A stretch of DNA of 64,000 nucleotides from Chiloscyllium plagiosum (taxonomy: Eukaryota): positions 102,917,676 through 102,981,675 of the forward strand of contig NC_057717.1 of assembly GCF_004010195.1 (NCBI RefSeq). The letters run 5' to 3'. Under the pieces are notes generated by a model that was given only the letters and a program-made list of their open reading frames with translations, had not been told where the DNA came from and did no database searches. The position numbers and the translations under genes were made by a program. Shown one piece after another: positions 2,028 to 58,869 of the stretch (positions are counted from its first letter, which is position 1; each line of letters starts with the position of its first letter).

Positions 2028-2543
2028 GGGAGAAGATTTGCAGCTTGGGTGCTTGTTGTTGTGGTTCTGTTCGCTGAGCTGGGAATTTGTGTTGCAAACG
2101 TTTCGTCCCCTGTCTAGGTGACATCCTCAGTCCTTGGGAGCCTCCTGTGAAGCGCTTCTGTGATGTTTCCTCCGGCATTTATAGTGATTTGCATCTACCG
2201 CTTCCGGTTAGCCACGAAACGACACAACCAGCTATCCTTAGTAGCCACACACTCCGATGACAAGCAACATGAGTTCGACTGGGACAACACTACTATTATA
2301 GGACAAGCCAAACAGAGAACAGCCAGGGAATTCCTAGAGGCATGGCACTCATCCACAGATTCAATCAATAAGCACATCGACCTGGACCCAATATACCAAC
2401 CACTGCAACGGACAGCTGGAACTGACAACCGGAAGCGGCAGATTCAAACCACTACAAATGCTGGAGGAAAGATCACAGAAGCGCTTAACAGGAGCACTGA
2501 GGATGTCACCTAGACAGGGGACGAAACGTCTGCAACACAAATT
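2028..2543 (+). mobile_element. Penelope-like element fragment (family E): GIY-YIG C-terminus plus pLTR, preceded by an inverted pLTR copy
   Basis: ORF 2160..2513 HSDDKQHEFDWDNTTIIG..REFLEAWHS..SINK; 2028-2208 is largely the reverse complement of the 3' segment; 15-bp TSD ttatcttgtaagttt at 2013-2027 and 2544-2558. Confidence 0.9.
2494..2533 (+). ncRNA. Minimal type-I hammerhead ribozyme motif (intact core)
   Basis: GCA-CUGAGGA-U-GUCACCU(AGAC)AGGGGAC-GAAA-CG-UC-UGC; helix I GCA/UGC; ACGU palindrome at helix III; second copy on the minus strand at 2094-2133. Confidence 0.8.
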
Positions 2544-3160
2544 TTATCTTGTAAGTTTCTATTAGATCTCCCCTCAACCTTCTAAACACTAATGAATATA
2601 ATCCCACGATCCTCAGCCATTCATCATATGTTGGGCCTACCATTCTAAGAATCTCCACTGGACAAGCTCCAGTGCCAGTATGTCCTTCCTGAGGTGTGGG
2701 GCCCAAAACTGGACACAGTATTCTAAATGGGGCCTAACTAGAGCTTTATAAAGTCTCAGAAGCAGGGTCATGGGCCTAATGGCCAGGAACAAATCCCCTT
2801 CGCCCTACCAAAGACTCTGGATTGAAAGTCACCCACTCTTGGGCACCATCTTGCCTCCATTTATGCCCTCACCTCCAAGAGCCCTTGATGGACCTTGCCA
2901 ATGCAGATGCCACCAAGTACCACACTGACAATGAGCCAGCCTTGGGCCCACCTCATCGATGCAGACATTGTCGATGCCCCAGGTCTCGTAATGGACTCGA
3001 ACCCACCTCCGGCACTGCCTCCATGAATCTGCACTGGACACAGACACCATCTGGGAACCCAAACCCATCTCTGACACCACCACCAGTCAATGCTGGGATC
3101 ACATTTTGCCCACTATGCCTTCACCAGGACTGAATTCTTACTCTCTTCGCATGACTATGT

Positions 3161-3511
3161 TCATAGAATTATAGAATCCCTACAGTGTGGAAGCAAGCCA
3201 TTCAGTCCATCAAGTCCACACTGACCCTCCTGCATCCCACTTCCCTCCCAAACCCGGATCCATGTAACGCTGCATTTCCCATGGCTAACCCACCTAGCCT
3301 GCACACCTCTGGACACTATAGGAAATTTAGCATGACTAATCCACCTAACCTGTATATCTTTGGACTGTGGGAGTAACTTGAAGCACCCGAAGGAAACCCA
3401 CGCAGACATGGGGAGAATGTGCAAACTCCACACGGTCGGCCAAGGCTGGAATCAAACCTGTGTCCCCAGTACTGTGAGGCAGCAGTGCTAACCACTGAGC
3501 CACCACGCCAC
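3161..3511 (-). mobile_element. HE1 SINE
   Basis: Full head, V-domain and tail in reverse; ATTCTATG-like tail repeat. Confidence 0.92.
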
Positions 3512-3849
3512 TCAGAAATGATGATAACTGAAGTTGAAACCATGATAGGGAGAGGCCCAGGGTGGATGGGTAATGGGTGGATAACTCTTTCCAGAGGGCT
3601 GGCAGAGGTGCAATGGGATGAATGGCCCTTCCTGTTCTGCTTCAATCGTTGAATGAGAATGGGACTTGGCAACGATTGCAAATGCTTAGCAGTTCTCAAC
3701 CCAACCCAGCTAGGAGTCGCTATTTATCAGAAACATAATAACTAGGAGTAGGAATAGGCCATTCAGCCCTTCAACACTACTATGCCATTCAATATGGAGG
3801 TATTTGCATTACACAGTATCAGAATTAGTTCAATGGGAAGCATTAAAAT

Positions 3850-4190
3850 CAATCCTGATGTTCCATGAGGGAGTGTTGTGCTGTCAACAGTGCCATCTTT
3901 CAGATCAGGTGCTATTACATTTTTTCTGCCCTCTGAAGAAATGTAATAAATTCATTCTATTTTAAAAAAACAAAGAGGGGGAGGTTCCTCTGGTGTGCTG
4001 GCCAATATTAATTCCTTAATCCACATCTCAAAAGTCCTGGCAATATCAGCTTGGTATTTTTGGAGGCTTGCTGGGTGTAAATTGGCCATCACATTTTCTC
4101 CATTACAACTGTGAGTGCATTGTAAGCATAATTTGAGAGTTGATGTAGTTTGAAGTTTAATTTCCAACTGATTAAGGGTATCCTGAAGTT
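3850..4190 (+). mobile_element. Old Deu-domain SINE remnant (SacSINE1/AmnSINE1-like)
   Basis: gagggagtgttgtgctgtc..gtgccatctttcagat..ggtgtgctggccaatattaattcc..gcttgctg..aaattggcc..cattacaac. Confidence 0.6.
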
Positions 4191-4493
4191 GCGAGTTCAA
4201 CTAGACAGTTTTTTTTTTGTGTAGTTTTATTTCCCTAGCATGCCCTGAGGCAAAAACTGCCTGCTGAATGTTACTGTATCTGTGTAGATGGAAAATAAGT
4301 TACTCCATTTTCTCGATTTTGTGATTATTGAAAACTGGCCATGTGGAAGATTACAGCGATGTGCACGGTGGGGGCTTGAGCCATATGCAGAAAATGAGTG
4401 ATGAATTACAATGAGAAATGATTGGAACTTTATACACCCCACTCTGAGTGCAGTTAAATGGGGCTAGAGCAGGGTATAATATTGGGGGTGATG

Positions 4494-5136
4494 TGTTATG
4501 GACTAGACCAAACCTACTCAATACATAGCAAGGAGATAGTCTAGACCCCAAATCTTAATTTATTTAAAGGCAAGTGTAAATTGCTGCATTCCAGATATTA
4601 TTGGTTTAACAGACTAGGCTTCAAGGAAAGCACACTTTATTCTTAAACCTCAAACAAGAAGAGAGGAATTGGCATAACTTTACCTCTATTGAAATACTTA
4701 ACAAAATAATATATTATTTAACTGCTACTCGTCAACCGTTCCAATGTAGCAGCATCCTGTAAACACATCCTTGGCAAAGGTAAGTTCAGCAAAACAGATT
4801 TCCCTCACATTCTGTCTTCCCCCAGTCCAGGAGGAGCAGCACCAGAGAGAGAGAGAGAAAGAGAGCGCGAGCGCTCAGGATGTTTGTAGCAGCATCAGAG
4901 AGAGAGCCGTATCCAGCAGCTTCAACTCTTTAAAACAAAACCCAACTTCAGCACCTGAAAGCAAATCTAAAACCCTGGGTCTGTGTGACCCTGACTCCAC
5001 CCACTCATGTTTCTTTTATCAAATTTTTTTAAAACCCCAAAGTTATTTGGTTTCCATGGAGCAGACACATTGTCACCACCCCTCTTCAAAAGAAATAGGG
5101 CAAAACAAATCCCTTCTAAAGACACATATCGTCACA
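4494..5136. mobile_element. Probable solo LTR
   Basis: Begins TGTTATG and ends CGTCACA (TG..CA, imperfect short inverted ends); related sequence at about 30640-31210; no clean TSD found. Confidence 0.5.
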
Positions 5137-5200: not shown

Positions 5201-5332
5201 GAGAAAGTGAGGACTGCAGATGCCAGAGGTCAGAGTCGAAGGTTGTGGTGCTGGAAAAGCACAGCAGGTCAAGCAGCATCCGAGGACCAGGCGAATCAAC
5301 ATTTTGTGCATAAGCTCTTCATCAGGAATCCT
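5201..5332 (-). mobile_element. Penelope pLTR-derived short element, family A (degenerate hammerhead)
   Basis: aaagtgaggactgcagatg..ctggaaaagcacagcaggtc..ttcatcagg, shared with the terminus of the long PLE at 9312. Confidence 0.8.
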
Positions 5333-5459
5333 GGTTGGAATATTGGTGCCAAGTGTACAAATAATGTTGGGCAGCTAGGGAGGGAGTCGGCATGTTGTGA
5401 TTGGACACCCCCTACCCAACAGAAGCCATCCCCACTCACTGGGGTGCTCTCACATCCCT

Positions 5460-6127
5460 CAGTGGTGCTGCGGTGGAGAGGGTCGAGAGCAAGAAGTTCC
5501 TAGGAGTAACAATCCCCGACAATCTGTCCTGGTCCACACACCTATGTTCAAGAAAGCACAACAATGCCTTTACTTCCTGAAGAGGCCAAGGAAATTCAGC
5601 ATGTCCATAAGGTCTCTCACAAATGTTTATAGATGCACCATAGAAAGCATTCTACCTGGATGCATTACAGTGTGGTATGGCAACTGCTCCGCCCAAGACT
5701 GGAAGAAACTCTGGAGAGTCATGAACACAGCACAGTCCATCGCTCAAACCATCCATTGACTCGGTCTATACCACCCACTGTCTTGGGAAAATAGCTAACA
5801 CCATCCCACCCTGATTATACTCGCTTCGACCCTTTTCAGGGTGAGTAGAAGATTGCAAAGTTTGAACAGACGCACAATCAGGTCCAAGAACAGCTTCAGC
5901 CCCATCGTTATCAGACTTTTGATCTCTATAATGTTAAGTCTGATTTCTGTGTCTCTCTCTCTGTCTCTCTCTCTGTCTCTCTCTCCTCTTCTCTGTGGCT
6001 GTAACACTGTACCCTGCACTCTGTTCTGCTACCCTGATGCACTTTGTGTGGTATGATCTGCCTGTAAAGCACGTAAGACAACAATTTTCACTGCGGTACA
6101 CAGGACTGTAAAAATCAAATCAAATCT
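5460..6127 (+). mobile_element. Rex1/Babar-like LINE 3' fragment
   Basis: KKAQQCLYFLKR.RKF.MS..LTNVYRCTIESIL.GCITVWYGNCSAQD; 3' UTR ending in (AAATC)n. Confidence 0.85.
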
Positions 6128-9311: not shown

Positions 9312-11176
9312 CAGGAGAAAGTGAGGACTGCAGATGCTGGAGAGTCAGAGTCGATAGGTGTGGCGTTGGAAAAGCACAGCAGGTCAGGCAGCATCGAAGG
9401 AGCAGGAGAATGGACGTTTCGGACATAAGCGCTTCATCAGGAATGTGGTGGGTGGGTGTGGGGGCTGGGAGATAAATAGGGTCTAGGGCTGGGGTTGGGG
9501 GGAAGGTAGCTGGGAAGGTGACATTTAGATGCAGGTGGGGGGTTAATGGTGATAGGGTGGAGTGAATAGGTGGGAAGGGAGATGGACAGGGGAGATAGTT
9601 CAAGAGAGTGGTGTCGAGTTGGAGGATTGGATCTGGATTGAGGTGGGGAGAGGGGAGATGAGGAAACTGGTGAAATCCACATTGATGCCATGGGGTGGGA
9701 GGGTCCCAAGGCAGAAGATGAGGTGTTCTTCCTACAGGCGTCAGGTGGCTTGGATTTGGCGGTGGAGGAGGCCCAGGACTTGCATGTTCTTGACAGATTG
9801 GGAGGGGGCGTTGAAGTGGTCGGCCACAAGGTGGTCGGTTTTCTTTGGTGTGTGTGTGTGTCCCAGAGATATTCTCTGAAATGTTCCGCGAGTTGGCATT
9901 GTGTCTCCTCAATGCAGAGGACACCACAACAAGAGCAATGGACACAGTAGATGAGGTATTTGGATTTGCAGGAAAATCTATGCCGGATATGGAAGGATCC
10001 TTTGGGCCCTTGGATGGAGGTGTGGGGGAGGTGCGGGCTCAGGTTTTACACCTCTTGTGGTAGCAGGAGAAGGTGCCGGGAGTGGAGGATGGGTTGGTGA
10101 GAAGCATGGACCTAACAGAGGGAGTTACAGAGGGAATAGTCTCTGCAGAATGCTGACAGGGGTGGGAGGGAAATATCTCTCTGGCAGTAGGGTCTGACTG
10201 AAGGTGGCAGAAATGGCGGAGTATGATGTGTTGTATCTGGTGGTTGGTAGGTGGAAGGTGAGGACTGGGGTGTTCTATGTTTGTTGCAGTTGGAGGGGTG
10301 GGGTTAAAGGTTGGAGGTTCAGGAAGTGGAGGAGATGTGCTGGAGGGCATTGTTAACCATGTGGGAGGGGTAGTTGCAGGCCTTGAAACAGGAGGCCATC
10401 TGGGATGTCCTAGAGTGGAATTGCTCCTCCTGGGAGCAGATACGACAGAGCCAGAGGAATTCGGAGTAAGGGGAGGTGGTGTGAGAAGAGGTGTAGTCCA
10501 GGTAGCTGTGGAGGTCAGTGGGTTTGAAATAGATGTCCGTGTTGAGCCCATCGCCGGAAATGAAGATGAACCGGTTCAGGAAAGGGAGAGAGGTGTCTGA
10601 GATGGTCCAGAAATCAGAGTGGAAGTTGTTTGTGAAGGTGATGAACTGTTCAACCTTCTTGTGGGACAGGAGGAGGTGCTGACACAGTCTTCGATGTAGT
10701 GGAGGAAAACGTGGGGAATGGTGCGGGTGTAGCTGCAGAAGATAGACTGTTCTGTGTATCTGACAAGGAGGCAGGCATAGCTGAGGCCCGTATGGGTACC
10801 CATGGCCACCTCTTTGGTCTGGAGGAAGTGGGAGGATACAAAGGAGAAGTTGGTGAGGGTCAGTTCAGCCAATCGAATAAAGGTGTCAGTGTAGGGGTAC
10901 TGGTCGGGTCGGTGGGAGAGGAAGAAACTGAGAGGTTGTGGAGGCCTTTGTCATGGTGGATAGGGACTGGATGTCCACGGTGAAGATGAGGCGCTGGGGG
11001 CCGGGGAACTGAAAGTCTTGGAGGAGGTGGAGGGCATGGGTGGTGTCCCAAATACATGTGGGGAGTTCCTGGACTGGGGGGGGGGGGAGCAGGACGGTGT
11101 CAAGGTATGAGCAGATAAGTTTGGTGGGTTAGGAGCAGGCAGAGACAATGGGTTGACCAGGTCAGTCAGGCTTGTG
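9312..11176 (-). mobile_element. Decayed Penelope-like retroelement (RT + Cys-rich linker + GIY-YIG + family A pLTR), probably Neptune clade
   Basis: ORF 10576..10872 AELTLTNFSF..FLQTKEVAMGTHTGLSYACL..FLHYIEDC (RT, YIDD decayed); PGTFSCYHKRCKT linker; about 9865-9955 reads LIYCVHCSCCGVLCIEETQCQLAEHFREYL (GIY-YIG); terminal repeat with hammerhead at about 9410-9444; many frameshifts. Confidence 0.88.
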
Positions 11177-11302
11177 AGGTGGAGAAATGGACGTTTCGGG
11201 TTTAATTCCCAAAGAAGGGCTACACTCGAAACATTGACCTATCCACATCCTGATGCTGCCTGGCTTGCTGTGTTCTTCCAGCCTCCTGCTTGTCCACCTT
11301 GG
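11177..11302 (+). mobile_element. Family B fold-back short element, right part (left part at about 9259-9310)
   Basis: gaagggctacactcgaaacattgac..gatgctgcctggcttgctgtgttcttccagcctcctgcttgtc matches 31432-31570; gaggacag repeated at 9253-9260 and 11302-11309. Confidence 0.7.
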
Positions 11303-17404: not shown

Positions 17405-17490
17405 TGTGCTGGAAAAGCACAGCAGGTCAGGCAGCATCCGAGGAGCAGGAAAATCGACATTTTGGGCAAAAGCCCTTCATCAGGAATGAA
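17405..17490 (-). mobile_element. Family A short element, followed by a partial HE1 (17497-17658, minus)
   Basis: Reverse strand reads AUUC-CUGAUGA-A-GGGC(UUUU)GCCC-AAAA-UG-UC (G12 lost). Confidence 0.8.
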
Positions 17491-17796
17491 TGCAATTAAG
17501 CCAATCCAACTAACCTGCACATAATTGGACTACAAGAGGAAACCCACACAGACACAGGGAGAATGTACAAGCTCCACTCCTTGTCCGAGGCTGGAATCAA
17601 ACCGGGTCCCTGGCGCTGTGAGGCAGCAGTGCTATCTATTGAGTCACCGTGCCACCCTCAAAGGCTGTAAATCTAACACCCGACATATGAACATTTCCTG
17701 AACTTAGCTACAGCTCCTTTATATTGTCCTGCGTTGTGTACCGGCCTAGCGAGCAAATCGATTTGGGTATAGAACCCATTCACATCCCATGGGCTG

Positions 17797-17939
17797 AGAC
17801 AAAGTGAGGGCTGCAGTTACTGGAGAGTCAGAGTCGAAAAGTGTGGCGCTGGAAAAAGCACATCAGGTCAGGCAGCATCCGTGGAGCGGGAGAATCAATG
17901 TTTTGGGCATAAGCTCTTTGCCGGGAATTTGCAGCACCA
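17797..17939 (-). mobile_element. Family A short element
   Basis: Family A body; imperfect TSD cacatcccatgggctg (17781-17796) / cacatcccagagactg (17940-17955). Confidence 0.8.
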
Positions 17940-21030: not shown

Positions 21031-21164
21031 AGGAGCAAATTACGGCAGCTGCTGGAACCCGTACTGAAAGCAACAAATGCTGGAGGTCACAGCGGGTCAG
21101 GCAGTATCCATGGAGAGAAAGCAAGCTAACATTTCGAGAACAACCAGAATTCCTGTCTGTTTTT
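21031..21164 (-). mobile_element. Family D pLTR-derived short element
   Basis: aggagcaaattacggcagctgctgg..gggtcaggcagtatccatggagagaaagcaagctaacatttcgag; TSD tggaatctagat(g/a)gt at 21016-21030 and 21165-21179; plus-strand relative at 29685-29806. Confidence 0.75.
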
Positions 21165-21690: not shown

Positions 21691-21988
21691 TTCTGGATTA
21701 GTGGTGCTGAAAGAGCACAGCAGTTCAGGCAGCATCCAAGGAGCTTCGAAATCGACGTTACGGGCAAAAGCCCTTCATCAGGAATAAAGGCAGTGAGCCT
21801 GAAGCGTGGAGAGATAAGCTAGAGGAGGGTGGGGGTGGGGAGAAAGTAGCATAGAGTACAATGGGTGAGTGGGGGAGGGGATGAAGGTGATAGGTCAGGG
21901 AGGAGAGGATGGAGTGGATAGGTGGAAAAGGAGATAGGCAGGTAGGACAAGTCCGGACAAGTCATGGGGTCAGTACTGAGCTGGAAGG
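21691..21988 (-). mobile_element. Family A (young variant) Penelope pLTR plus purine-rich flank
   Basis: aatcgacgttacgggcaaaagcccttcatcaggaat followed by a G-rich segment homologous to 9445-9620. Confidence 0.85.
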
Positions 21989-22026: not shown

Positions 22027-22158
22027 CTAGGCAGAAGTGGGTATTGCAGATGTTGGAGATTAGAATCAAGATCAGAGTGGTGCTGGAAAAGCACAGCAGG
22101 TCAAGCAGCATCCGAGGAGCAGGAAAATCAATGTTTCGGGCCGAAGCCCTTTATTCGG
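22027..22158 (-). mobile_element. Family A short element
   Basis: Perfect 14-bp TSD aaatcacagcttta at 22013-22026 and 22159-22172. Confidence 0.88.
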
Positions 22159-26572: not shown

Positions 26573-26604
<32 letters not shown>

Positions 26605-29684: not shown

Positions 29685-29806
29685 GAGTTATCTACACTTG
29701 AAACCTTAGCCTCCTCTCTTTCCATGGACGCTGCCTGATCCACTCTGATCTCCAGCATTCTTTGTTCTCTGTGTAGATTCCAGCGCCTGCTGTGGTTTGC
29801 TCCTAC
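29685..29806 (+). mobile_element. Family D short element (degenerate)
   Basis: gagttatctacacttgaaaccttagc..tttccatggacgctgcctgatcc..tttgctccta, reverse-complement match to 21031-21138. Confidence 0.65.
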
Positions 29807-30189
29807 CCTGATCCATCAAGGATGTTGTAAGGAATGAAATAACTGAAGGCAGAGGTGGAGAGATTTGCAGAGCTTGGTGCATGCCTTCTGTGTTCGAGAT
29901 GCCAGTATCGGAGTCACGGAAAGCACACACCAGTGAGGAGAGAACGGGGTGGTGCACAGCTCCCGGAGAGGGGAAGGTCTGGGTTGGGATCACAGCGATC
30001 CGAGAACCCAACCCACTCCCCCTCCATTCGTTGACTCCACGTGAGAAGGCAAAAGGGGCTTAGCTCTGCTGTCTCATCCATCACTGTGTCCCCTGTTTAT
30101 TTAGGAGTCCCAGAGAGATGGGGCTTCTCGTTGGCGCCCTGGAGTCTTAAAAGATTAAGGTGCATTATCTGGGCTGCATAACCAGGAAT

Positions 30190-31299: not shown

Positions 31300-32235
31300 T
31301 GTGACTCCTCCCATACTGAAGCAGTTTGTGTCCATATGCAACGGAGTATTTCATGTTGTGGTTGTGAAGTACCAAGGAATGGCCATCTCTGATAAACGAG
31401 AATCTAACCGCTGCCTCTTAACTTTGAATGGAGACAAAAAAAAACTACAGATGCTGGAATCCAAGGTCGAGAAACAGGAGGCTGGAAGAAGGGCTACACC
31501 TGAAACATTGACTTCTCCAGCTCTTGATGCTGCCTGGCTTGCTGTGTTCTTCCAGCCTCCTGCTTGTCTATCTTAACTTTGAATGGCATTACCACCACTG
31601 AGTCCACAATGAGCAATATCCCAGGTGTTACCATGGAGGAGAAACTGAACTGGACCAACAACATACATACTGTGGCTGTAAGAGAAGTTGAGAGATGTCT
31701 GCAGCAAGTCTGTCACCTCTTGACTTCTTAAGACCTATCCACCATCTACAAGGCATCAAGTCAGGAATGAAATGGGATATTCCCACTTTGTAGCTCCAAC
31801 AGCACTCAAAGCGCTTGACACCATCCAGGACAAAGCAGCCTCTTGACTGGCATGCCATCTTAGAGCATCAGCACTCACCCCTTCCACCAACTGCATGGTG
31901 GCTGCAGTGTGTACCACCTACAAGATGCAGTACAACAACTTTTTGAGGCTGTTTTAACGACATCTTTCAACCTGTGACCTCTAATCCCTAGGAAAGTACA
32001 AGGGCAGCAGATACATGGGTACATAGCTACCTGCAAGTTCCCGCCCAAGCCTATCATCATCCTGACGTGGAAATATATCGCTATTCCTTCAGTGTCACTG
32101 GGTCAAAATTCTGCAATTCCCTCCCTACAATTCAAGTAGGGAACTTTCCATTAACTCCTCCAGCACAATTAAGGATGGGTAATAAATATTGGCACAGCCA
32201 ACAACACCCTCATCCTATGAATGATTATGAGAAAA
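31300..32235 (+). mobile_element. CR1/L2-like LINE 3' fragment (second family) carrying a family B insert
   Basis: cttgacaccatccaggacaaagcagcc; tail gatgggtaataaatattggcacagcc. Confidence 0.75.
31432..31570. mobile_element. Family B fold-back short element
   Basis: caggaggctggaagaa / ttcttccagcctcctg inverted arms; perfect 16-bp TSD tcttaactttgaatgg at 31416-31431 and 31571-31586. Confidence 0.88.
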
Positions 32236-34744: not shown

Positions 34745-34858
34745 TCAGTTCTGAGGAAGGGTCACCGGACTCAAAAACATTACCTCTGCTTTCTCTTCAC
34801 AGATGCTTCCAGCTTTGCTCAGCTTTTCCAGCAACTTCTGTTTATGTTTCTGATTTAC
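34745..34858 (+). mobile_element. Family C short element
   Basis: agttCTGAGGAagggtcaccggactcaaaaacatt.. (hammerhead with G12 lost) then ctcttcacagatgc..ttccagcaacttctg. Confidence 0.75.
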
Positions 34859-35094
34859 TGTCTGAGTGAAGAAGTTATTCTCCATCTCAGTCCTAAATGA
34901 ACCCTAATTCCTAACTGCTTAGTTCAAAACTCTCCAGTCAGGAAAAGACAGCATCTCATTATCTGGGTCTAGCTCCTTAAGAATTGTATCAGTGGCAAAG
35001 TGATTGCCCCTCATCCTTCTGAACTGTAGGGAATATAGGCCTGGCCTACTCAATCTCTCCTTGGAGGATAAACTCTCATTCCATCAATCAGTCT

Positions 35095-37236: not shown

Positions 37237-38487
37237 TAAAAGAAAACAACGAATGCTGGAAATCAGAAACAAATGCAGAAATTGCAGGGGGAAAATACCT
37301 GGCAGGTCTGGCAGCACCTGTGGAGAGAAAGCAGAGTTAACGTTTAGGGTGCAGTTCTTCAGAACTGATTGTAGCTGGGGTAAGGTTGGTAGATATACTG
37401 TAGATAGGTAGGGGGGAGAAGTAAATGCTAGGTGGCGATGGAGCCCACAGAGGGAGAACAACAGTCAGGCAGACAACGGGGTGGGTAAAGGTCAGCCTGA
37501 GGGCATAGACGGCTGCTAATGGGGAGTGATAGAGGCTGACATTGGGATGGTTGTGATAGCAGCCCATGTGATGACAAGGCCTAGTGTGTCGGGTTGGGGT
37601 AAGGACATGGAAGGAGGTGCTCAGGTCCTCAAGTTATTGAACTCGATGTTGAGTCATAGAGTCACAGACAAGCAGGAGACTGGAAGAACACAGCAAGCCA
37701 GGCAGCATCAGGAGGTGGAGAAGTCAACATTTCCCTTCCTCAGGACCTGGGATGCTACCTGGTTTGCTGTGTTCTTCCAGCCTCCTGCTTCTGCAGGTTT
37801 TATTTTGTCTCTATAGAGTAATTGAGTCATACAGCACAGAAATAGACCCTTCGGTCCAACCAGTCCATGCCAAACATAATCCAAAACTAAACTTGCCCCA
37901 CCTGCCTGCTCCTGGCCCACATATCTCCAATCCTTTCCTGTTCATGTACTTATCCTTCAGGCTGCAGGGTTCCCAAGCGGAAAATGAGATGCACTTCGCT
38001 GGAACACGACAGCAAACCTGAGGCAGAGATGTTAGCCAGAGAATAGGGTGGTGTGATGAAATCAAGATTAGCGTGGTGCTGGAAAAGCACAGCAGGTCAG
38101 GCAGCATCCGAGGACCAGGAAAATCGACATTTCGGGCAGGAGCCATTCATCAGGAATGAGCTCATTCCTACACGAAATGTTAATTTTCCTGCTCCTCGGA
38201 TGCTGCCTGACCTGCTGTGCTTTTCCAGCACCACTCTAATCTTGATTCTGATCTCCAGCATCTGCAGTCCTCACTTTCACCTGGTGTGATGAAGTGGTAG
38301 GCAACTGGAAGCTCAGGGTCTTTTTTTTGTGGACGGAACACTTGGCATATAGACCAACCCTTTCCCTAGCAACAATTAGTTCCGAAGAAGGTTCGGTGGA
38401 CTCAAAACATTAACTCTGCTTTCTCTCCATGGATGCTGCCAGACCTGTTTAGGTTCTCCAGCAGTTTCTGGTTTTGTGTCCAGATCT
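37237..38487. mobile_element. Family C Penelope-like fragment with inverted pLTRs, containing nested family B (about 37665-37790), CR1 tail (about 37812-37950) and family A (38061-38281) insertions
   Basis: Minus-strand pLTR at about 37237-37366, plus-strand pLTR at about 38376-38487; body pieces resemble 9600-9850. Confidence 0.7.
38061..38281. mobile_element. Family A fold-back short element
   Basis: About 70-bp inverted arms; perfect 12-bp TSD tggtgtgatgaa at 38049-38060 and 38282-38293. Confidence 0.9.
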
Positions 38488-38741
38488 TCTTTCCCACTCA
38501 CTGGAATTTGTACGCTCTTACATCCTATAAACCTGTGGTGCTGTGTGATCTTTCACATCCACCAGAGAAGGGAAGACAGGGCCTCAGTGTAACATCATAT
38601 CTTAGAGATGGCACCTCCTCCAGTTCAGCCTTCCCTCAGTGTGAGGCATCCTTTTTCTGTCGCCTCTGAGCACCGTGCACTCCAACAACACTCCTGACGG
38701 TGAGCGAACATCCTAGACTGATACCCGAGTAGGATGCTGCA

Positions 38742-44441: not shown

Positions 44442-44864
44442 AAGTATTATTTCTTTTGGCCTCAACTGCTTTCTGTAGCAGGAAATTCCACAGGCTCCCC
44501 CACTCTCTGGGTGAAGATATTTCTCCTCACCTCAATCCTAAATGGCCTACTCCTTATCCTGCGCCTGTGTCCCCTGATTCTGGATTGTTCAGTTATCAGG
44601 GACATCCTTCCTGTGTTTACCCTGTCTAGCCCTGTTAGAAGTTTATAGGTTCCTGTGAAATGCCCCCTCATTCTTCTCCCAGTGAATATAATCCTAATCA
44701 TAATCCTAATCTCAGTCTCTCTCTCAGACCTCAGTCCTGCCATCCCAGGAATCAGTCCAGTTGGTTGTTTATCAGTTTATGGCATATGATTCAATAAAGC
44801 ACTTATTTGAGATGATAACTCCATTGTTCACCAGGACTACTGAGATTGAAGAAATACACACCAG

Positions 44865-45227
44865 AGGTGCTGGTGTTGGACTGGGGTGGACAAAAGTCAG
44901 AAGTCAGACAACGCAGCATCCAGGGAACAGGAGAATCGACGTTTCGGGCATAAGCCCTTCTTCAGGCTTATGCCCGAAACGTCGATTCTCCTGTTCCTTG
45001 GATGCTGCCTGACCTGCTGCGCTTTTCCAGCAACACATTTTCAGCTCTGATCTCCAGCATCTGCTGACCTCACTTTCTCCTCAGAAGTCAGACAACACCG
45101 AGTTATAGTCCAACAGGTTACAGTCACTCCTTCATCTGACAAAGGAGCAGCGCTCCAAAACTTGTGATTTCAAATTAACCTGTTGGACTATAACCTGGTG
45201 TCGTGTGACTTCTGACTTTGTCCACCT
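44865..45227. mobile_element. Family F fold-back short element hosting a family A insert
   Basis: ggtggacaaaagtcagaagtca..gttatagtccaacaggtt / aacctgttggactataac..tgacttctgactttgtccacc inverted arms; degenerate hammerhead tctgacaaaggagcagcgctccaaaa at about 45136-45160. Confidence 0.85.
44913..45080. mobile_element. Family A fold-back short element (young)
   Basis: Perfect 16-bp TSD tcagaagtcagacaac at 44897-44912 and 45081-45096; 44-bp inverted arms; minus-strand core CUGAAGA-A-GGGC(UUAU)GCCC-GAAA-CG-UC. Confidence 0.93.
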
Positions 45228-45465
45228 GAATAAATGAATAAAGCTCAGACCAAACAAACTGACACTATGGTGTGAGCTTTTCCTTCAGGCGGGTTTTTGT
45301 CTGGTATGGTGCAATGCTAATGCTAGCTCCAGGAACAAGAATGAGATGCGAGTAACTTGGCATTGAAAGATTCAGTAGATGTATATTACTACTCTTACAT
45401 GTAAATATATCATGATCGCAGTCACTTCAGTGTCTGGGCTAATATTAAGTTGGTCAGCTGCAAAC

Positions 45466-47238: not shown

Positions 47239-47459
47239 TGAAAAGTGCTGCGCTAGAAAAGCACAGCAGGTCAGGCAGCGCCTGAGGAGCATGGGAGTCG
47301 ACGTTTCAGGCAGAAGGCCTCCATCACAAATGAATGAAGGGATTATGCCCGAAACGTCAACTCTCTTGCGCCTCGGATGCTGCCTGACCCGCTTTTTACC
47401 AGTGGCCACACTTTTCAACTCTGACTCTCCTGCATCTTCAGTCCTCACTTTCCTCCTCC
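47239..47459. mobile_element. Family A fold-back short element inside a Deu-SINE remnant
   Basis: Inverted arms; TSD actg(t/a)cctgagagt at 47225-47238 and 47460-47473. Confidence 0.85.
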
Positions 47460-49280: not shown

Positions 49281-50934
49281 GTTTATTTGTGGCCTGCTGG
49301 GCTGTCACAGACACCAGTTAATCTTCAACCACGTTGCTGTGGGTCTGGAGTCACATGTCGTCCAGACCAGTTTCCTTTCCTAAAGGACATTAATGGACCC
49401 GATAGGTTTTCACAACAATCACTGATAGTTTCACAGGCACCAGCACTGAGACTTGCTTCCAACTCTTTGATGGAATTTAAATTCTACTTGCGGGAGTGGT
49501 GCAGGAGCTTCCCAAATGACCTCCCCAAAACAAGAGGGACAAGTAGAGACATTAACAGTAGGAAGTGAGTGGGGATGGAGACTGGGTTACTTTAACATTG
49601 TGTCTGTCCTGTTGGCAGCAGGCAGAATGGGTGAGAGTTTCCCGAATATTCTGTCACAGTGATGCATAAAGTGAATTATGTGTTCGCATATAAACCGCTG
49701 ACGCAGAAACAGGAAAACAATAAGATGTAATTACATAGTGCCTTCAACGGAGTAAAATATTCCAATACGCTGCATGTGGACATTTTAAAATGGATGTTAC
49801 AACAGCTTACTGGAGTGGCTGGGATTTGAACCTCCTGGCTTTGGGATAGGGATGCCGCCACTGTGCTACAGGAGCCCTCAAAACAGTACACATATGGCAA
49901 TATCAGGGCAGCTGAACATTGGTCAAAGAGGTCAGATTTAAATAAGCATTTTAAACATGTCCTTCAGGATGGGAAGTCAGATCTTAGGCAGTGCAATAAA
50001 TATGTCGAACAATATTTGCAACAAGAGGTTAGAGGTTTCTTCTAAGAATGCCTTCCAGAAAGAGCGCACAAAGATATAACAGTCTCATATAGACTTCCTG
50101 ATGCATTGTTGTATCTGAACGAAGTCATACCTGCTTCAGACTTACAGCATTGACTTAGCCTGTGAATACTAACTGGATAGCTTGAGAGAGATCTGCAATG
50201 CAGGTCTTAGGGGAAAGGTACTATAATAAAGAACTGTCTATCAAGCAAGGACAAAGAATCAAAACAGCAGCAGGGGGAACAAAATGTAATCTATGCAAAC
50301 ACAGTCAATGGGCATAATGGTCTTCCTGTGTCCTTGTACAAAAGCATGTGCTTCCTCTAATCTGTCAGCTGTCCAGTCAGTGCTGGGCAGGTAGGTCAGT
50401 CACCAGAGGTCACAGGTTAAAGATAATTGGCCAACAATACAGGTGACAGAGTCTTTAACTCACGTTATTCACAACAGCAACTTGCATTTATGTCACTCCT
50501 CCAATGTATTGCAACATTCCTAAGGCATTTCACAGACGTGTTATCGAACACAATCTAACTTCGAAGCCACATGAAATTCTGGGACTGGTGACTGATAGCC
50601 TCAAACCTCCGGTAAAGGGAATGTTGAAGCTGGAGAGGGAATTTCCGAGCCCAGGCTCGTGGAGTTGATTGAGCTGGCTACCCATGGGTAGAGCAATTCA
50701 GACTGCAGGAGCGTGGATCTCAGAGGGTTGTAGGGTTGAGGATGGGTGCAGAGACTGCAAGCAGGTGAGAACAAAGCAATCTGAAAAGAATCATGGAAAT
50801 GACTACAGGACAGATATTTGGTCTATTGCTTCCATGCAGAGTCCTGAAGGAGAAATGAACCAAGGGCCACTCTCTAGTCTCTTCCCTGCAAATGTTTCCT
50901 CTTCAGATAATGATCTATCCACACGACTAGAGCA

Positions 50935-52365
50935 GGGTGGTAAGGACAAGCCAGGGAACTATAGACCTGTGAGTCTGATGTTGGTAGTGGGCAAGTTGTT
51001 GGAGGGAATGCTGAGGGACAGGATGTACATGTATTTGGAAAGGCAAGGACTGATTCGGGATAGTCAACATGGCTTTATGCGTGGGAAATCATGTCTCACG
51101 AACTTGGTTGAGTTTTTTGAAGAAGTAACCAAGAGGATTGATGAGGGCATGGTGGTAGATGTGATCTACATGGGCTTCAGTAAGGCGTTCGACAAGGTTC
51201 CCCATGGGGGACTAGTGAGCAAGGTTAGATCTCATGGAATACAGGGAGAACTAGCCATTTGGATACAGAACTGACTCAAAGGTAGAAGACAGAGGGTGAT
51301 GGTGGAGGGTTGCTTTTCAGACTGGAGGCCTGTGACCAGTGGAGTGCCACAAGGATCGGTGTTGGGTCCTCTACTTTTCTTAATTTACATTAATGATTTG
51401 GATGTGAGCAGAGGAGGCACAGTTGGTAAGTTTGCAGATGACACCAAAATTGGAGGTGTAGTGGACAGCAAAGAGGGTTACCTCAGATTACAACAGGATC
51501 TGGACCAGATGGGCCAATGGGCTGAGAAGTGGCAGAAAGAGTTTAATCCAGATAAATGTGAGGTGCTGCATTTTGGGAAAGCAAATCTTAGCAGGACTTA
51601 TACACTTAATGGTAAGGTCCTTGGGAGTGTTGCTGAACAAAGAGACCTTGGAGTGCAGGTTCATAGTTCCTTGAGAGTGGAGTCACAAATAGATAAGATA
51701 ATGAAGAAGGCATTTGGTATGCTTTCCTTTATTGGTCAGAGTATTGAGTACAGGAGTTGGAGGTCATGTTGCGGCTGTATGGAAGGTCATGTTGCGGCTG
51801 TACAGGATGTTGGTTAGGCCACTGTTGGAATATTGCATGCAGTTCTGGTCTCCCTATCAGAAAGATGTTGTGAAAATTGAATGGGTTCAGAAAAGATTTA
51901 CAAGGATGTTGCCAGGGTTGGAGGATTTGAGCTATAGGGAGAGGTTTAATAGGCTGGGACTGTTTTCCCTGGAGCATCGGAGGTTGAGGGGTGACCTTAT
52001 AGAGGTTTATAAAGTCATGAGGGGCATAGATAGGGTAAATAGACAAATCCCTGGGGTGGGGGATTCCAGATCTAGAGGGAATAGGTTTAGGGTGAGAGGA
52101 GAAAGGTATAAAAGAGACCTAAGGGGCAACTTTTTCACACAGAGGGTGGTACATTCATGGAATGATCTGCCAGAGGATGTGGTGGAGGCTGGTACGGTTG
52201 CAACATTTAACAGGCATTTGGATGGGTATATGAATAGGAAGGGTTTGGAGGGATATGGGCCGGGTGCTGGCAGGTGGGACGAGATTGGATTGGGATATCT
52301 GGTTGGCATGGATGAGTTGGACCAAAGAGTCTGTTTCTGTGCTGTACATCTCTATGACTCTATGA
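50935..52365 (+). mobile_element. CR1 (HER1-like) LINE, 1.4-kb 3' fragment with reverse transcriptase domain (pseudogenised)
   Basis: PGNYRPVSL..SQHGFMRGKSCLTNL..FSKAFDKVPH; SGVPQGSVLGPLLFLIYINDL..KFADDTK; stop at 51272-51274 and frameshifts; ctctatgactctatga tail. Confidence 0.97.
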
Positions 52366-53059
52366 ATGAACTTGCTGAAGAAGGAAGGCAATGTTAAAAT
52401 GAGACCAGGAGCTAACAAGCAGCAAGGGGCCCAGTCTGATTTGCAGCAGAAACAACCCAGACTTGCTTGAACTTCAAATCACCAAATGCAAAATCCTGTA
52501 AGAGTTGTCATCATCGGGCGAAGGGTTCAGGTTGGTTTTCTTTGCAGGTTTCAAAGACACTTCCACACCCTTACCAAGGGTGGGTTATACTAGCCATTCA
52601 GAATTAGCCTCAGAGGAGTTTCATGATATTGACCAGAGCATAAGAGTCACACATCCGAAACTGACATTTGGAAGTGAATATTCGTTGGGGTGGAGGGTGT
52701 GGGTAAGGGATGTCACAGTATTCACCCAGCACATTTTGATCTTACACACTTCTGGAGCAGACAGGGTGAAGAACCTGGACCTCCTGTCTCAGAGATAGGG
52801 ACATTGCCACTGCATCACAAGAGCCAGAACACAGTGTTGCAATGAAATAAGATAATGATTTGATCGATTAAGTCAACACTTGCTCACAGTACCTCAAGTT
52901 TCAATTGTTCCATTCAAAACTCATCACTTTATTTCCTCACTGACACCTGGTTTATCTTTCACTGACCTAACTGAAAGCAAAGTACTATGGATTCTCAGAA
53001 ACAGAAAGTACTGGAGGAATTATAGGGTTTCCTACAGCACCTTCTAGTTATTCTGATCT

Positions 53060-53790: not shown

Positions 53791-55986
53791 ATCCAGGATT
53801 TGATGTGTGCCAATCAACATTGCATACTCCCTCCTCAGGACCCCTTAAGTACAGGCATAACCTTAAAGGGGGAGCAGGCAGTATGGGTCTAAACACCTCC
53901 TCTATGAACCTGCTGCCTGGCAAATGGCCACCTACAATTTCCTTATGGATATTGTTAGTCAACCTGATCAGATGTGTTATGCCACACCACTGGGACTTGA
54001 ATAATGACCTTCTGGCTCAATGGTAGAGACACTACCACAGTGCACAAGAGCCCTGCATAACTTCCTGCATCAATTATTTCCTGTCTCCTGCAAGGCTATG
54101 CACCAGGGGCTCGAAAGTGGGATTAACGTGAGCTTGTTTGTGCAAGCTGGCACAGACATGGAGGGCTGAATGGCCTCTCTCTGTGCTGTATCTCTCCTTT
54201 GTTTCTCTGATTCCTGCGACCTCTGCCCTCCGATCCCGCCCTCATCCTCTGATTGGACCTTTAACCCCTCTGAGACTTTCTACATGACACCCAAAGCCAC
54301 AGTCAGCTGCAATTTAATTATGCAGTTCCCTCTATTGGGAGGTGAAATCTGTCATCTTGAACTTGTCACTTTATCTGATTTTAAAGGAAAAACAAAAGCC
54401 TTTGATGCGATTATTCTGAAAGCTAGGAGCACTGAAAACAAATTGCATTCTGGTAATATTTTTATCCTGTGATTGTTCTGTCATAATCACAATAAGATAA
54501 AGTTGTCTAATGGAATTCTACACTCGTTTAATGTTCCTTTTTGTCCACTTTCACCATCGCCTGTACTGTTTGCACTGCCTTTCATTATTTTCTTGTTCTC
54601 TGTGTCAGATCAGGGTGAGGCTCAATTCACTGGCAACATCCAGAACAGATGAGGGCATTCAGTCCATCAAACCCATTCTGTTCCTCTGTTAGATCATGGC
54701 TGGTCTGTGCTGTGAATCCATTCATCAGGGGTTTATCTCTGACCCCTTATTATCCAAAACTGACACTAGTCTGTCCATCTTAGCCTTAACTTGCAACTGA
54801 TCCTTAGCATTCAAAGTCTCTTTTGGGGAGATAATTCCTGTAATTTTAAGGTTTAAGCATCTTGACTGAGTTGTGACTCGATCTTCCATACTTGAGGAAT
54901 GCAAGTCTAGGACCCAAAGGACTTATCGTACATGAGATTGAACAGTAAACGTTAGCATTCTATGCAACCTTCATGATCAGGTTTACAGTGTCCACCTTCC
55001 ATGTTCAGGGTCAATTCTGCCATGGTGACTATCCCCCAACCCTACACGCCAAAAACACATGTCTCTCCTCACCCCAATAAACCCTACTGCTACCCACATC
55101 ATGGAATTCCAACAATCACCATCAAGATTCTTCCATACCTGTGCAAGTTAGACCCAGGTAATAAATTGCTGAATCTTTGCTTTGGAGACCTGATCTATCC
55201 TTGATGCTGTGACCAGAACTGAATGCAGTTCCTCCAGACACAATCTAGGGGGAGTCGATTGTCTAGTGGTAACTTCACTGGACTGGATTCGCACTCAGCT
55301 CAGGCGAAGTGGGTTCAAATCCCCAATGATAGCTGACAGGATTTCAAATTCAGTTACCAATTCTGGCCCTTCAAACCATCCTGCATCACCAATCCATGTC
55401 CTTAACTGGAATGCCTTGCATGTGACACCTCAGTTCCCCTTAGGAGCAACTATTGATGGCCTTATGTGCGATGACCACATACTGTGGAAAGGTAAACATC
55501 TGGAAAAGAATTCACAATCTAACCTGCCACCTCCATCATTTTGAAAATTAACACCCTTAAATTATTGCCTTGTGTTAGAGGTGAGAGTGGACCTTTAACT
55601 GCTGCGGTCTTGGGATGATGGTCTTCCCCGGAAGGGTATTTGGAAGATTGTTGAAGGATTCTGACCCAGTGGCATGGCCTAGAATGTGGAGCTTTTTGTG
55701 CTGTACTGGTAGTATCCCTGCCTTTGGAACTGAAAGGCCTGGGTTCAAATTTTACCTCCTCTACAGGTGTGTATGTGTGTGTGTGTTACTACAGGTCTGA
55801 ACAGATTGATCTGAAATACTCAGAGAATAATGCGTGTGGATTTTGTAAAATCTTGAAATGGTAAAAGAAACAAGCGCCCGACAATGATTAGCTCCAGGCT
55901 GTTTAAGAAGCATTTTGCATTTAAGTAGCACCTGCAACGTCCTAAAACATCCCAAGGTGGTCCACAGGAGCATATTCAAATGAAAG

Positions 55987-56165
55987 GTCAAGAAATGTGG
56001 CGTTGGAAAAGCACAGCCGGTCAGGCAGCATCCGAGGAGCAGAGAATTGACGTTTCAAGAGTAACCAATCATCTCCTGCTCCTTGGATGCTGCCTGAGTG
56101 ACTGTGCTTTTCCAGCACCACACGTTTTGACTCTGATCTGCAGCATCTGCAGTCCTCGCCCTCTC
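55987..56165. mobile_element. Family A fold-back short element
   Basis: Inverted arms; TSD catattca(a/g)atgaaag at 55971-55986 and 56166-56181. Confidence 0.87.
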
Positions 56166-56886: not shown

Positions 56887-57208
56887 GGATTACTTACAGT
56901 GTGGAAACAGGCCCTTCAGCCCAGCAAGTCCACACTGACCCGCCAAAGCAAGTCCACACTGACCCACCCAGACCTATTCCCCTACATTAACCCCTTCACC
57001 TAACACTACGGGCAATGTAGCATGGCCAATTCACCTAACCTGCACATTTTTGGACTGTGGGAGGAAACCAGAGCACCCGGTGAAAGCCCACGCAGACACG
57101 GGGGGAATGTGCAAACTCCACACAGTCAGTCGCCTGAGGCGGGAATTGAACCCGGGTCTCTGATGCTGTGAGGCAGCAGTGCTAACCACTGAGCCACCGT
57201 GCCGCCCA
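56887..57208 (-). mobile_element. HE1 SINE (young subfamily)
   Basis: Near-consensus; internal duplication of caagtccacactgaccc. Confidence 0.93.
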
Positions 57209-57315
57209 TAAAACGTGGACTGTATTGGTGGAGGGTTGTAACCTTACTCTGGGACAAGAGTCCTGAATTTAAGTGCCACTTTGCTCCAAAGGTATTAGCT
57301 ACCTGGGGAAGAAGA

Positions 57316-57436
57316 ATCACACTAGCTTTCGGAGCGACGCTCCTTCATCAGGTGATTGTGGACTATAACCTATAACCTGGTGTTGTGTGATTTTTAACTT
57401 TGTACACCCCAGTCTAACACCGGCATCTCCAAATCA
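57316..57436. mobile_element. Family F short element with inversion
   Basis: Perfect 12-bp TSD tggggaagaaga at 57304-57315 and 57437-57448; right part matches 45180-45227. Confidence 0.88.
57320..57354 (-). ncRNA. Minimal type-I hammerhead ribozyme motif (intact core)
   Basis: CAC-CUGAUGA-A-GGAGC(GUC)GCUCC-GAAA-GC-UA-GUG; helix I CAC/GUG; AGCU palindrome. Confidence 0.8.
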
Positions 57437-58453
57437 TGGGGAAGAAGAGGTGCTTTTGTACTGTCTTGAGGAATGAAAAGCTCAGTTTTAAGGAGGAGGG
57501 AGGCAAAGAGGGCGGAAGCGATTGAGGGACCCAAAGCTCATCCATTTGGTGGGGCAGAGAAGCAGAGAGAGGGAGAGATTCAGGGAAGGGATTTCAGAGG
57601 TTGGGGTCCGAGCAACTGGAGGCACAGTTGCCAACGGCTAAAGAGATTAAAATCAGGAGGTCCAACCTAACAATGTGCACAGATCTCAGAGAGTGGGTAG
57701 GGCTGGAGAAAGGGCTGAGAAATTACTCATACGGTTAGTGAGATTGTATGATAAATATGGCGGACTAGCTTCTACAATTTACATGCATTCAGAATGGAGT
57801 GCATAAAATATCGAAAGAAAAGTCGTCTCGAGTTGCCAGAAATTCAAACACATTCCAACGTGAGCACCAGTCTCTGAATAAATTTTAAGAAAGAATGAGA
57901 ACTTTTAACAGCTCTGAGGCAAGCATGCCTGGTCTTTGTCAGTTATTGGTTGAATTTTATTGTTTTGTCAATAGTCGTAAAATCAAAATATAATTATTAT
58001 CCACCCTCTTTTTGCAATTCCCATCAAAATACAGTCAACATCTAGCTCGCTTTCAGGAGTGTTACAGATCACTTCACTGTATGCAGACAGTTTAAGGATT
58101 GTTATTTATTGGGACCTAAAGTAAGGGTTTTAAATCTCTGTTTTCCTTCTTATTCCTCCAGCTTTTTTGCTTCTCCTCCCCTTTTGAGTGGTCTCTGGGG
58201 TCCGGTTCCATGTTGCTGTGGTATGTTATCAGAATGATTGCTGTTCACTGACAGTTGAATTGTGACTATGCTGGAGATGGGGTAGCATTGTTGCAATAGG
58301 CAGACCTGATAGTTCAATGTGCTCAAACACACACCCATCCTCCTCCCAGAAGTATACTTTGTATTTAGCTGCAATGCAATACAGCAGTGAAAAACTGTCA
58401 TTCGATCATACGGAACTTGAATATCGGTGATAAAATAAAAGCACCTTTTGCCC

Positions 58454-58665
58454 AACCAAAAACAGAAATTGCTGGAAAAGCTCAGCAGGTCTGGCGGCAT
58501 CTGCACAGAGAAATCAAGAGTTAATGGTTCGGTTCTGAGGAAGGGTCACTGGACCCGAAATGCTAACTATTGCTTTCTCTTCGTAGATGCTGCCAGACCT
58601 GCTGGGTTTTTCCAGCAATTTCTGTTTTTGTTTCTGATTTACAGCAACCGCACTTACTTCGGATT
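58454..58665. mobile_element. Family C fold-back short element
   Basis: aaaaacagaaattgctggaaaa / ttttccagcaatttctgttttt arms; hammerhead GUU-CUGAGGA-A-GGGUC(ACUG)GACCC-GAAA-UG-CU-AAC at 58532-58567 (cleavage site mutated). Confidence 0.88.
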
Positions 58666-58757
58666 GTAGTTTCTGTCCACTTTTCCTCTGCCCGTCAGGA
58701 AAATTTGCAAGAATGCCAGTGTAAAGGGAGCGATGTTTTGGTACTGTATGAGAGTTG

Positions 58758-58869
58758 AAAAGTGTGGTGCTGGAAAAACACAGGAGGCCAGGCAGCATCT
58801 GAGGAGCAGGAGAATCGACGTTTCGGGCATAAGCCCTTCTTCCAGCATGCGCAGTCCTCACTTTCTTCC
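58758..58869 (-). mobile_element. Family A short element with inversion, inside an older repeat (family G, about 58690-59065)
   Basis: Perfect 15-bp TSD actgtatgagagttg at 58743-58757 and 58870-58884. Confidence 0.9.

Follow-up and report, generated by a model that had tools for sequence, protein, structure and literature searches.

Minimal hammerhead motifs in short repeats of a shark genome, probably the end-modules of Penelope-like elements

Minimal hammerhead ribozymes in metazoan Penelope-like elements (PLEs) were published in 2014, in multiple sequence families and in thousands of copies per genome (Cervera & de la Pena, PMC4209133), and PLE expansion in the whale shark has been in print since 2018 (bioRxiv 10.1101/443036). 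The general phenomenon is thus already known, as is the hammerhead for the PLE class, and as far as the available part of the 2014 paper goes, the novelty that the first-pass annotation suggested for the repeats described below does not hold. Mechanistic work is available on PAc, a Poseidon-type PLE of Anolis carolinensis, for which the consulted sections describe reverse transcription that initiates internally and extension of both target strands (Frangieh et al. 2024, PMC11167929).

We analysed a single window, a 64-kb stretch of Chiloscyllium plagiosum DNA (NC_057717.1; all positions follow the window's numbering). A strict minimal-hammerhead descriptor (CUGANGA, 0-1 extra nt, a stem II of at least 4 bp with at most one mismatch, GAAA, a palindromic 2-nt pair, U, H) matched at four places: 2130 (-), 2497 (+), 44965 (-) and 57351 (-). 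The chance level was 0.005 matches per shuffle over 200 dinucleotide shuffles of the window and a mean of 0.007 for 300 permuted cores on the real sequence, with a maximum of 1 in both cases. Besides these four intact hammerheads there are about 18 decayed copies, or about 22 in total; the first-pass annotation, which sorted the copies into families A to F, gave roughly 20. Each of the 16 positions it cited holds a repeat copy. The additional copies are of type A (5329-, 17927-, 22160-, 47329-/47333+, 56061- and 58848-), C (37362-), E (2130-) and F (about 45140+). The loci are as follows.

2084..2209, minus: E lineage, inverted arm; intact minimal hammerhead 2093-2134, helix I broken in this copy
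2210..2545, plus: E lineage, 5'-truncated PLE arm with the C-terminal part of the ORF; intact hammerhead 2493-2534, ORF stop codon inside stem II, about 13 nt of common tail after helix I
5214..5329, minus: A copy, single arm, full tail; box intact, G12 mutated
9328..9444, minus: A copy, hammerhead 9409-9444 and full tail; whole core intact with one stem II mismatch; 3' end of the PLE remnant
9445..11160, minus: decayed, frameshifted PLE body with RT motifs, GIY-YIG region and C-rich 3' UTR
11158..11282, no single strand: B-type locus with two inverted arms, at the PLE remnant's 5' edge; box degenerate
17405..17487, minus: A copy, single arm, shortened tail; adjoins a tRNA-type SINE
17811..17928, minus: A copy, single arm, full tail; core degenerate
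21078..21140, minus: D arm truncated within the hammerhead, 3' half only
21696..21960, minus: longer A copy, reaching about 160 nt beyond the 5' side of the hammerhead; this added stretch is collinear with the 9444 element's 3' UTR
22027..22158, minus: A copy; exact 14-nt target-site duplication at its borders
29697..29807, plus: D arm; box not visible
31432..31570, plus: B two-arm insertion; exact 16-nt duplication; the apparent box belongs to the inverted arm
34747..34870, plus: C copy; box intact, GAAA mutated
37260..37362, minus: C copy; stem II deletion
37659..37821, no single strand: B two-arm insertion; 10-nt duplication, stem II deleted
38061..38281, no single strand: A two-arm insertion; exact 12-nt duplication
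38378..38490, plus: C copy; core degenerate
44862..45235, plus: older F-type two-arm element; decayed hammerhead 45132-45168; split by an A insertion
44913..45080, no single strand: A two-arm insertion; intact hammerhead 44934-44969 (minus strand); exact 16-nt duplication
47248..47441, no single strand: A two-arm locus in which each arm extends to the box region
55980..56152, no single strand: A two-arm locus, degenerate
57316..57436, minus: F insertion; intact hammerhead 57319-57355; exact 12-nt duplication; an inverted full-tail arm and a sense arm ending 8 nt past the cleavage site
58454..58660, no single strand: C two-arm locus; box and GAAA intact, U16.1 mutated
58758..58869, minus: A copy flanked 5' by a short piece of inverted tail; exact 15-nt duplication

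The catalytic boxes C3-U4-G5-A6-N7-G8-A9 and G12-A13-A14, together with A15.1/U16.1 and a non-G at position 17, are present in the four strict matches and in the majority consensus of 20 aligned copies, which retains the full core. In this alignment, read by eye and excluding B37745 and C37362 because of their stem II deletions, 11 of the 20 copies retain an intact CUGANGA box, 13 retain GAAA and five retain the whole core. All four strict matches have an extra nucleotide after A9 (a 1-nt offset) and a palindromic 15.2/16.2 pair (CG in both A and E, GC in F), and helix III is absent. Read by eye, stem II is also closed by a G-C pair in the best A, C, E and F copies; the stem sequences differ among these copies yet still pair. 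Helix II measures 4 bp in A, 5 bp in C and F, and 6 pairs plus one mismatch in E. Helix I is 2-4 bp long overall, with 3 bp in E and F and, in A, 2 bp together with one additional pair; the longer GGGC/GCCC helix previously proposed for A is reduced to this partial pairing. The Rfam hammerhead families (type I, II, III, HH9 and HH10) gave no match at the gathering score or at E<=10, either over the whole window or over short stretches, and predicted homodimer folds gave no preference to the helix III pairing of the hammerhead. The lack of an Rfam match, these homodimer folds, the short helix I and the stem II of 4-5 bp in A, C and F are points against the explanation that we prefer below. The report of minimal hammerheads in these short repeats is partly confirmed; it is real but overstated.

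These motifs share with the minimal hammerheads of PMC4209133, as the available text presents them, the CUGANGA and GAAA boxes, the G10.1-C11.1 closing pair, and the absence of helix III combined with a palindromic 15.2/16.2 pair that allows two copies to pair. In both, moreover, one genome holds several sequence families whose helices carry compensating changes, and most copies are solitary, with some opposite-strand pairs (100-700 nt apart). In contrast, stem II in A, C and F is shorter than the 6-8 bp given in that text and helix I has 2-4 bp where it gives 4-5 bp, the host is a shark whereas the hosts named there are fishes, coelacanth, Xenopus and reptiles, and the local density is high, with four intact and about 22 total copies in 64 kb.

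Rather than six unrelated families that converge on one ribozyme, the window appears to hold three lineages with a motif inherited as a PLE feature. A profile search with the A family recovered 25 arms (E<=0.01) at 19 loci, and these include the B, C and D arms. Judged by these matches, A, B, C and D are one homologous tail superfamily, with E and F separate, and the number of PLE lineages is at least two and probably three (A-D, E and F). The lineages that share the motif cannot be aligned with one another beyond its core. The B copies are degenerate, as the first-pass annotation stated, but every one is broken, and the apparent box at 31482 and 58848 is the reverse complement of an inverted arm's tail. 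Likewise, only the 3' half of the motif is visible in D copies, as had been said. The identity of B and D as hammerheads is not verifiable from these copies.

The derivation from PLEs is supported directly for A and E, which are joined to PLE frames within the window. About 160 nt separate the A hammerhead at 9444 (-) from a decayed reverse-transcriptase and GIY-YIG endonuclease frame (9603-11128, minus) that lies upstream and runs into it. Within 9445-11160 (-), the RT motifs are 64-66% identical to Chiloscyllium punctatum proteins with RVT_1, and the best match of this region (P0003) shares 47% identity over 605 aa with an 883-aa GIY-YIG-domain protein. The frame 9446-10045 (-) has 217 relatives; among the 12 scanned, GIY-YIG was found in 10, four of which carry RVT_1 as well. 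In E, a second PLE-type frame has its stop codon inside the hammerhead. The ORF of this E arm matches the C-terminal 113 residues of an RVT_1 protein at 81% identity, and this protein aligns in turn through a GIY-YIG region. RT followed by GIY-YIG in one ORF is found for both the A and the E lineages. Because F has no attached coding sequence within the window, its PLE origin is suggested by architecture alone. These placements differ from PAc, whose hammerhead, in the available part of PMC11167929, overlaps the start of the ORF rather than lying past its end or on its stop codon.

Exact flanking repeats of 10-16 nt are present at 7 of 20 loci, compared with a control 99th percentile of 9 nt, and the units bounded by these target-site duplications span 112-168 nt. 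Many loci consist of two inverted arms of unequal length with their tails pointing outward, and in one nested case an A insertion lies inside an F element. Such 5'-truncated insertions, with an adjacent inverted copy and target-site duplications, support a fit to the published structure of PLE insertions. The consulted portion of Craig et al. 2021 (PMC8557442) describes strong 5' truncation, an adjacent inverted 5'-truncated copy, a tail extension and a hammerhead near the 3' end, all of which have counterparts here. Similarly, the PAc hammerhead as described adjoins an RNA region needed for insertion, the tail that terminates PAc insertions is set by internal RT initiation, and extension of both target strands would yield inverted arms (PMC11167929, in part). 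However, the partial tandem or pseudo-LTR arrangement of general PLE insertions was not seen in this single 64-kb window, nor was a head-to-tail pair; the same-strand neighbours 17927/17487 and 22160/21785 have unrelated spacers. One window carries little weight for this negative. Moreover, the tails of A-D and F, at about 100 nt, exceed the 30-40 nt given in the available text of PMC8557442. In density the repeats equal the main tRNA-type SINE of the window, with 19 A-D loci and 19 SINE loci.

We consider it highly probable that the repeats are insertion products of endonuclease-bearing PLEs, each carrying a 3'-terminal hammerhead and tail module. This module consists of a minimal type-I hammerhead without helix III and then a tail. 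In A-D and F the tail extends about 100-110 nt beyond the cleavage site; in E it extends about 13 nt beyond helix I, or about 16 nt when counted from the cleavage site. The element's GIY-YIG endonuclease may make a staggered cut, after which reverse transcription would begin within the RNA tail and proceed 5'-ward. Both target strands would often serve as primers, giving two inverted arms with tails outward, and most products would terminate at or within the hammerhead. Once inserted, copies would decay neutrally, so that a complete core is still found in only 4 of about 22. Judging from published work on other PLEs, the hammerhead itself probably takes part in processing the element RNA, either in dimeric form or together with the element's protein.

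The 5' ends of the A copies lack the spread expected under random truncation, which counts against this explanation. By eye, 9 of the 11 box-retaining A arms start no more than about 10 nt from the box, five arms (5329, 17487, 17927, 22160 and 38157) share the same start nucleotide to within 1 nt, and only two (9444 and 21785) extend upstream. One possibility, which we regard as unlikely though far from negligible, is that the A-type and F-type units of 110-170 nt are a separate, independently amplified, non-autonomous SINE-like class, not random 5' truncations: the RNA would be discrete, with its start a few nucleotides 5' of the ribozyme and a tail recognised by the PLE reverse transcriptase, and would be copied in trans. 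The size of the duplication-bounded units is in keeping with this proposal, as are the 19 A-D loci set against one long PLE remnant in the window and, from the available part of PMC11167929, the position of the Anolis insertion RNA region just 3' of the hammerhead. However, C copies reach variably upstream of the box, with at least 28 nt common to two of them, and a promoter-bearing head (tRNA, 5S or 7SL) is absent. Furthermore, reverse transcription that starts at a 5'-proximal tail copy on ordinary PLE RNA would leave an identical pattern, and one 64-kb window cannot separate these alternatives. We entertain only tentatively, as a doubtful but specific proposal, that the dominant PLE product in this shark, rather than a truncated element, is a discrete 110-170 nt unit reaching from a few nucleotides upstream of the hammerhead to the tail. 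This unit could be a PLE-dependent SINE-like class, or it could be a "solo" product begun at the 5'-proximal tail copy of a terminally redundant PLE RNA.

Animal non-LTR retrozymes, reportedly treated by Cervera and de la Pena in 2020 (PMC7229834), offer another reading, in which the repeats would be transcribed in tandem, self-cleaved, circularised and copied back by rolling circle. A type-I-like hammerhead within a short non-coding repeat agrees with it, and a 2026 preprint (Li et al.), in its available part, links such PLE-derived and PLE-dependent retrozymes to PLE pseudo-LTRs, with one chondrichthyan included. The retrozymes described there form tandem arrays with canonical type-I hammerheads and circular RNAs, whereas the copies here are dispersed single insertions, bounded by their own duplications, often in inverted pairs, with minimal hammerheads that lack the canonical helix III and loop contacts (no Rfam match), and they are not permuted around the cleavage site. 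None of the 17 rows of a tandem-repeat search (periods up to 500) overlaps a hammerhead locus. Because tandem arrays are missing from the window, the repeats are very unlikely to be retrozymes, and the retrozyme-like option raised in the first-pass annotation is not supported. Less probable still, and already largely refuted, is a chance pattern in hairpin-forming, MITE-like remnants of DNA transposons. Many loci are indeed long inverted repeats with weak scores against miRNA precursor models, and the Rfam hammerhead models found nothing. Yet the motif is about 600-800 times commoner than in shuffles or with permuted cores, it is shared by lineages with nothing else alignable, and two lineages are joined to RT and GIY-YIG frames. 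A DNA-transposon hairpin should also have equal-length terminal inverted repeats and a duplication of fixed length, whereas these arms are unequal and the duplications vary from 10 to 16 nt.

If insertion by PLEs is the correct explanation, the short hairpin-like repeats in this shark DNA represent PLE end-modules and are neither miRNA-like hairpins nor MITEs, which is of use for the repeat annotation of shark genomes. Ribozyme work also gains three naturally occurring hammerhead variants from them. Only the way in which 5' ends cluster at the ribozyme edge could inform what PLE hammerheads do. If the discrete unit proves true, these sharp ends would be the 5' terminus of an RNA, the ribozyme would lie at the very start of the mobile RNA, and the role of PLE hammerheads would become testable.

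A minimal hammerhead ribozyme without helix III recurs in this window beyond chance expectation. It was sought with a strict descriptor of the published minimal motif, comprising CUGANGA (the box), up to one extra nucleotide, a stem II with 4 bp or more and no more than one mismatch, GAAA, a Watson–Crick 2-nt pair, U, and a nucleotide other than G. Four sites in the 64-kb window match (2130−, 2497+, 44965−, and 57351−). Dinucleotide shuffles (n = 200) yielded a mean of 0.005 matches and a maximum of 1, and scanning the real sequence with permuted core letters (n = 300) gave 0.007 on average, again with no more than 1. Thus, the motif is not a chance outcome of hairpin-rich sequence.

A repeat copy is present at all 16 positions cited in the first-pass annotation, and the copies other than the four strict matches are decayed. 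Among 20 aligned copies (B37745 and C37362 were left out owing to stem II deletions), the box is intact in 11, GAAA in 13, and the whole core in 5, as read by eye. Many of the differences are changes of CG to TG or CA. In agreement with the annotation, the aligner's majority consensus of the 20 copies retains the complete core. Rfam reported no hammerhead at the gathering score or at E ≤ 10, either for the whole window or for short segments covering the intact copies of F and E, and the motif does not qualify as a member of the Rfam hammerhead families. This outcome is expected for a motif that lacks helix III.

The annotation had proposed that at least six unrelated families, labeled A to F, converge on this motif. 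A profile made from seven A copies recovers 28 arms (individual repeat copies) at E ≤ 1 and 25 at E ≤ 0.01, and the latter collapse to 19 loci, with all B, C, and D copies among them. Given that A, B, C, and D have a common tail 3′ of the cleavage site, they constitute one superfamily. The E lineage (two arms, 2084–2545) and the F lineage (57316–57436 and a decayed copy within 44862–45235) do not align to other copies. Three distinct lineages thus exist (A–D, E, and F), and the count of six does not hold because A–D share their tail, and convergence of unrelated families was likewise overstated. The lineages do not align outside the core, and the window contains three to four that are independent.

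The best copies of A, C, E, and F carry stem II sequences that are unlike one another yet paired (six pairs plus one mismatch in E, 5 bp in both C and F, and 4 bp in A), with a G–C closing pair in all four. Compensatory pairing of helix I was also claimed, and is borne out in E, F, and C, where 3–4 bp are complementary and differ in sequence each time, but is weak in A. Family B is real as a set of repeat copies, although its hammerhead is broken in all three and cannot be read. At 31482 and 58848 (31478–31490 and 58840–58849), what looks like a box is an inverted arm's tail in reverse complement. More generally, the A/B tail resembles a hammerhead box when reverse-complemented, and an inverted arm abutting a truncated sense arm takes on the appearance of an intact box with a 1-nt insertion. 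In D, the box is wholly missing. Dimer folding was uninformative, as the predicted A homodimer joins via a neighboring palindrome rather than through a hammerhead helix III.

The proposal that these repeats derive from Penelope-like elements (PLEs), which encode a reverse transcriptase (RT; Pfam RVT_1) and a GIY-YIG endonuclease, is largely right, with both A and E linked to PLE genes in the window. A frameshifted coding remnant (9445–11160, −) stops upstream of the A hammerhead at 9444, at a distance of about 160 nt. Neither RT nor GIY-YIG was detected by Pfam in its decayed frames directly, and its identity is therefore established via relatives. The RT part is 64–66% identical to Chiloscyllium punctatum proteins with RVT_1, the best of which matches, at 47% identity over 605 residues, an 883-residue protein ending in a GIY-YIG domain. 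The frame at 9446–10045 has 217 relatives; among 12 that were scanned, 10 contain GIY-YIG and 4 also contain RVT_1. An initial word-indexed query using the GIY-YIG frame and a metagenome scan with the A-lineage open reading frame (ORF) each returned no match. A sense fragment (11158–11205, −) made up of the hammerhead 3′ half and about 45 nt of tail immediately precedes the PLE ORF, which here is cut short at about residue 300. The junction is complex, and such junctions in PLEs are ascribed to template switching.

The right arm of E codes for the C-terminal ~110 residues of proteins in an RVT_1 family from hemiscylliid and whale sharks (74–94% identity), and an E-related RVT_1 protein aligns through the GIY-YIG region of a second protein with both RT and GIY-YIG. 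The stop codon is inside stem II, and thus the E box is also coding. Two C. punctatum gene models related to 2151–2513 (+), P0157 and P0162, include the C-terminal part of this ORF at 88–94% identity; they are named as isoforms of a 5′-nucleotidase domain protein and MAP3K7, and the shared piece reflects exonisation of PLE sequence or else an artefact of annotation. No coding sequence is attached to F in the window, and its assignment as a putative PLE follows from the architecture it has in common with the other lineages.

Other repeats and frames in the window are as follows.

398–577, 3335–3517, 12248–12428, and 57017–57212: examples of a tRNA-type SINE
5379–5756 (+): separate frame with a Pfam ALKBH8_N match
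22893–23195 and 26573–26642: microsatellite-like arrays, degenerate and GA/GT-rich, plus a (TC)n tract; neither is related to the hammerheads
50669–52397 (+): frameshifted RT with RVT_1 in two adjoining frames

The last of these was rejected as a PLE, its similarity to a PLE protein not being significant (E 0.08), and is probably a LINE remnant. The SINE has 19 copies (17488–17665 and 18 further loci), equal in number to the A–D loci. A composite of SINE and A element at 17487 was considered and rejected, given that the other SINE matches stop at 157–174 of the 178-nt query, before the A junction.

Seven of 20 loci are bounded by exact direct repeats of 10–16 nt, compared to a 99th percentile of 9 nt among 2000 control window pairs. 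One of the A insertions, which has a duplication of 16 nt, lies inside an older F element. Six A–D loci and both F loci consist of two inverted arms with tails outward, bounded as single insertions. Two of these (37673–37787 and 44914–45007) receive weak Rfam miRNA precursor scores (mir-578, 39.9 bits; mir-680, 33.6 bits) that are far below threshold, and inverted two-arm PLE loci could pass wrongly for miRNA hairpins. In published work, PLE insertions show heavy 5′ truncation, an adjoining inverted 5′-truncated copy, and a tail (PMC8557442), and reverse transcription of an Anolis PLE initiates internally with both cut strands extended (PMC11167929); the duplications and inverted arms seen here agree with that published structure. 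Based on this literature, GIY-YIG would make a staggered target cut, priming would occur within the tail, inverted arms may result from priming on two strands, and inserted copies would then decay neutrally.

The 5′ ends of A copies are clustered. Of the 11 A arms in which the box region survives, read by eye, 9 start no more than about 10 nt from the box, and five of them (5329, 17487, 17927, 22160, and 38157) have a common start nucleotide, ±1. Only 9444 and 21785 extend upstream, the latter being collinear with the 9444 3′ UTR (pairwise E 9e-9; local alignment score 46, with shuffles reaching at most 35). Such clustering would not be expected if a multi-kilobase element were truncated at random. 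One possibility that fits is a discrete short RNA acting as a non-autonomous unit; initiation at a 5′-proximal tail copy, on PLE RNA whose 5′ end lies there, fits as well. C copies reach further upstream by varying lengths, and thus the sharp pattern is not general. The specific suggestion of retrozyme-like mobile RNAs is unsupported, as no tandem array contains a hammerhead (0 of 17 tandem-repeat rows in the window overlap one), and the spacers between same-strand neighbor copies are unrelated.

We can only infer what role the ribozyme might have in PLEs. Dimers of minimal hammerheads are reported to have low in vitro activity (2014; PMC4209133), and cleavage by the Anolis PLE hammerhead is reported to be protein-dependent and dispensable for in vitro insertion (2024; PMC11167929).

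The 2014 paper (PMC4209133) describes minimal hammerheads in PLEs as multi-family, covarying, and mostly solitary, and as numbering thousands in each of the coelacanth and Xenopus genomes. According to two preprints, PLEs have expanded in whale shark introns (2018; bioRxiv 10.1101/443036), and PLEs and retrozymes occur in one chondrichthyan (2026). Within the accessible literature on hammerheads and Penelope elements in sharks and other chondrichthyans, we found no description of the families reported here, and A–F have probably gone unnamed so far as hammerhead carriers. These shark families are an expected case of a known rule.
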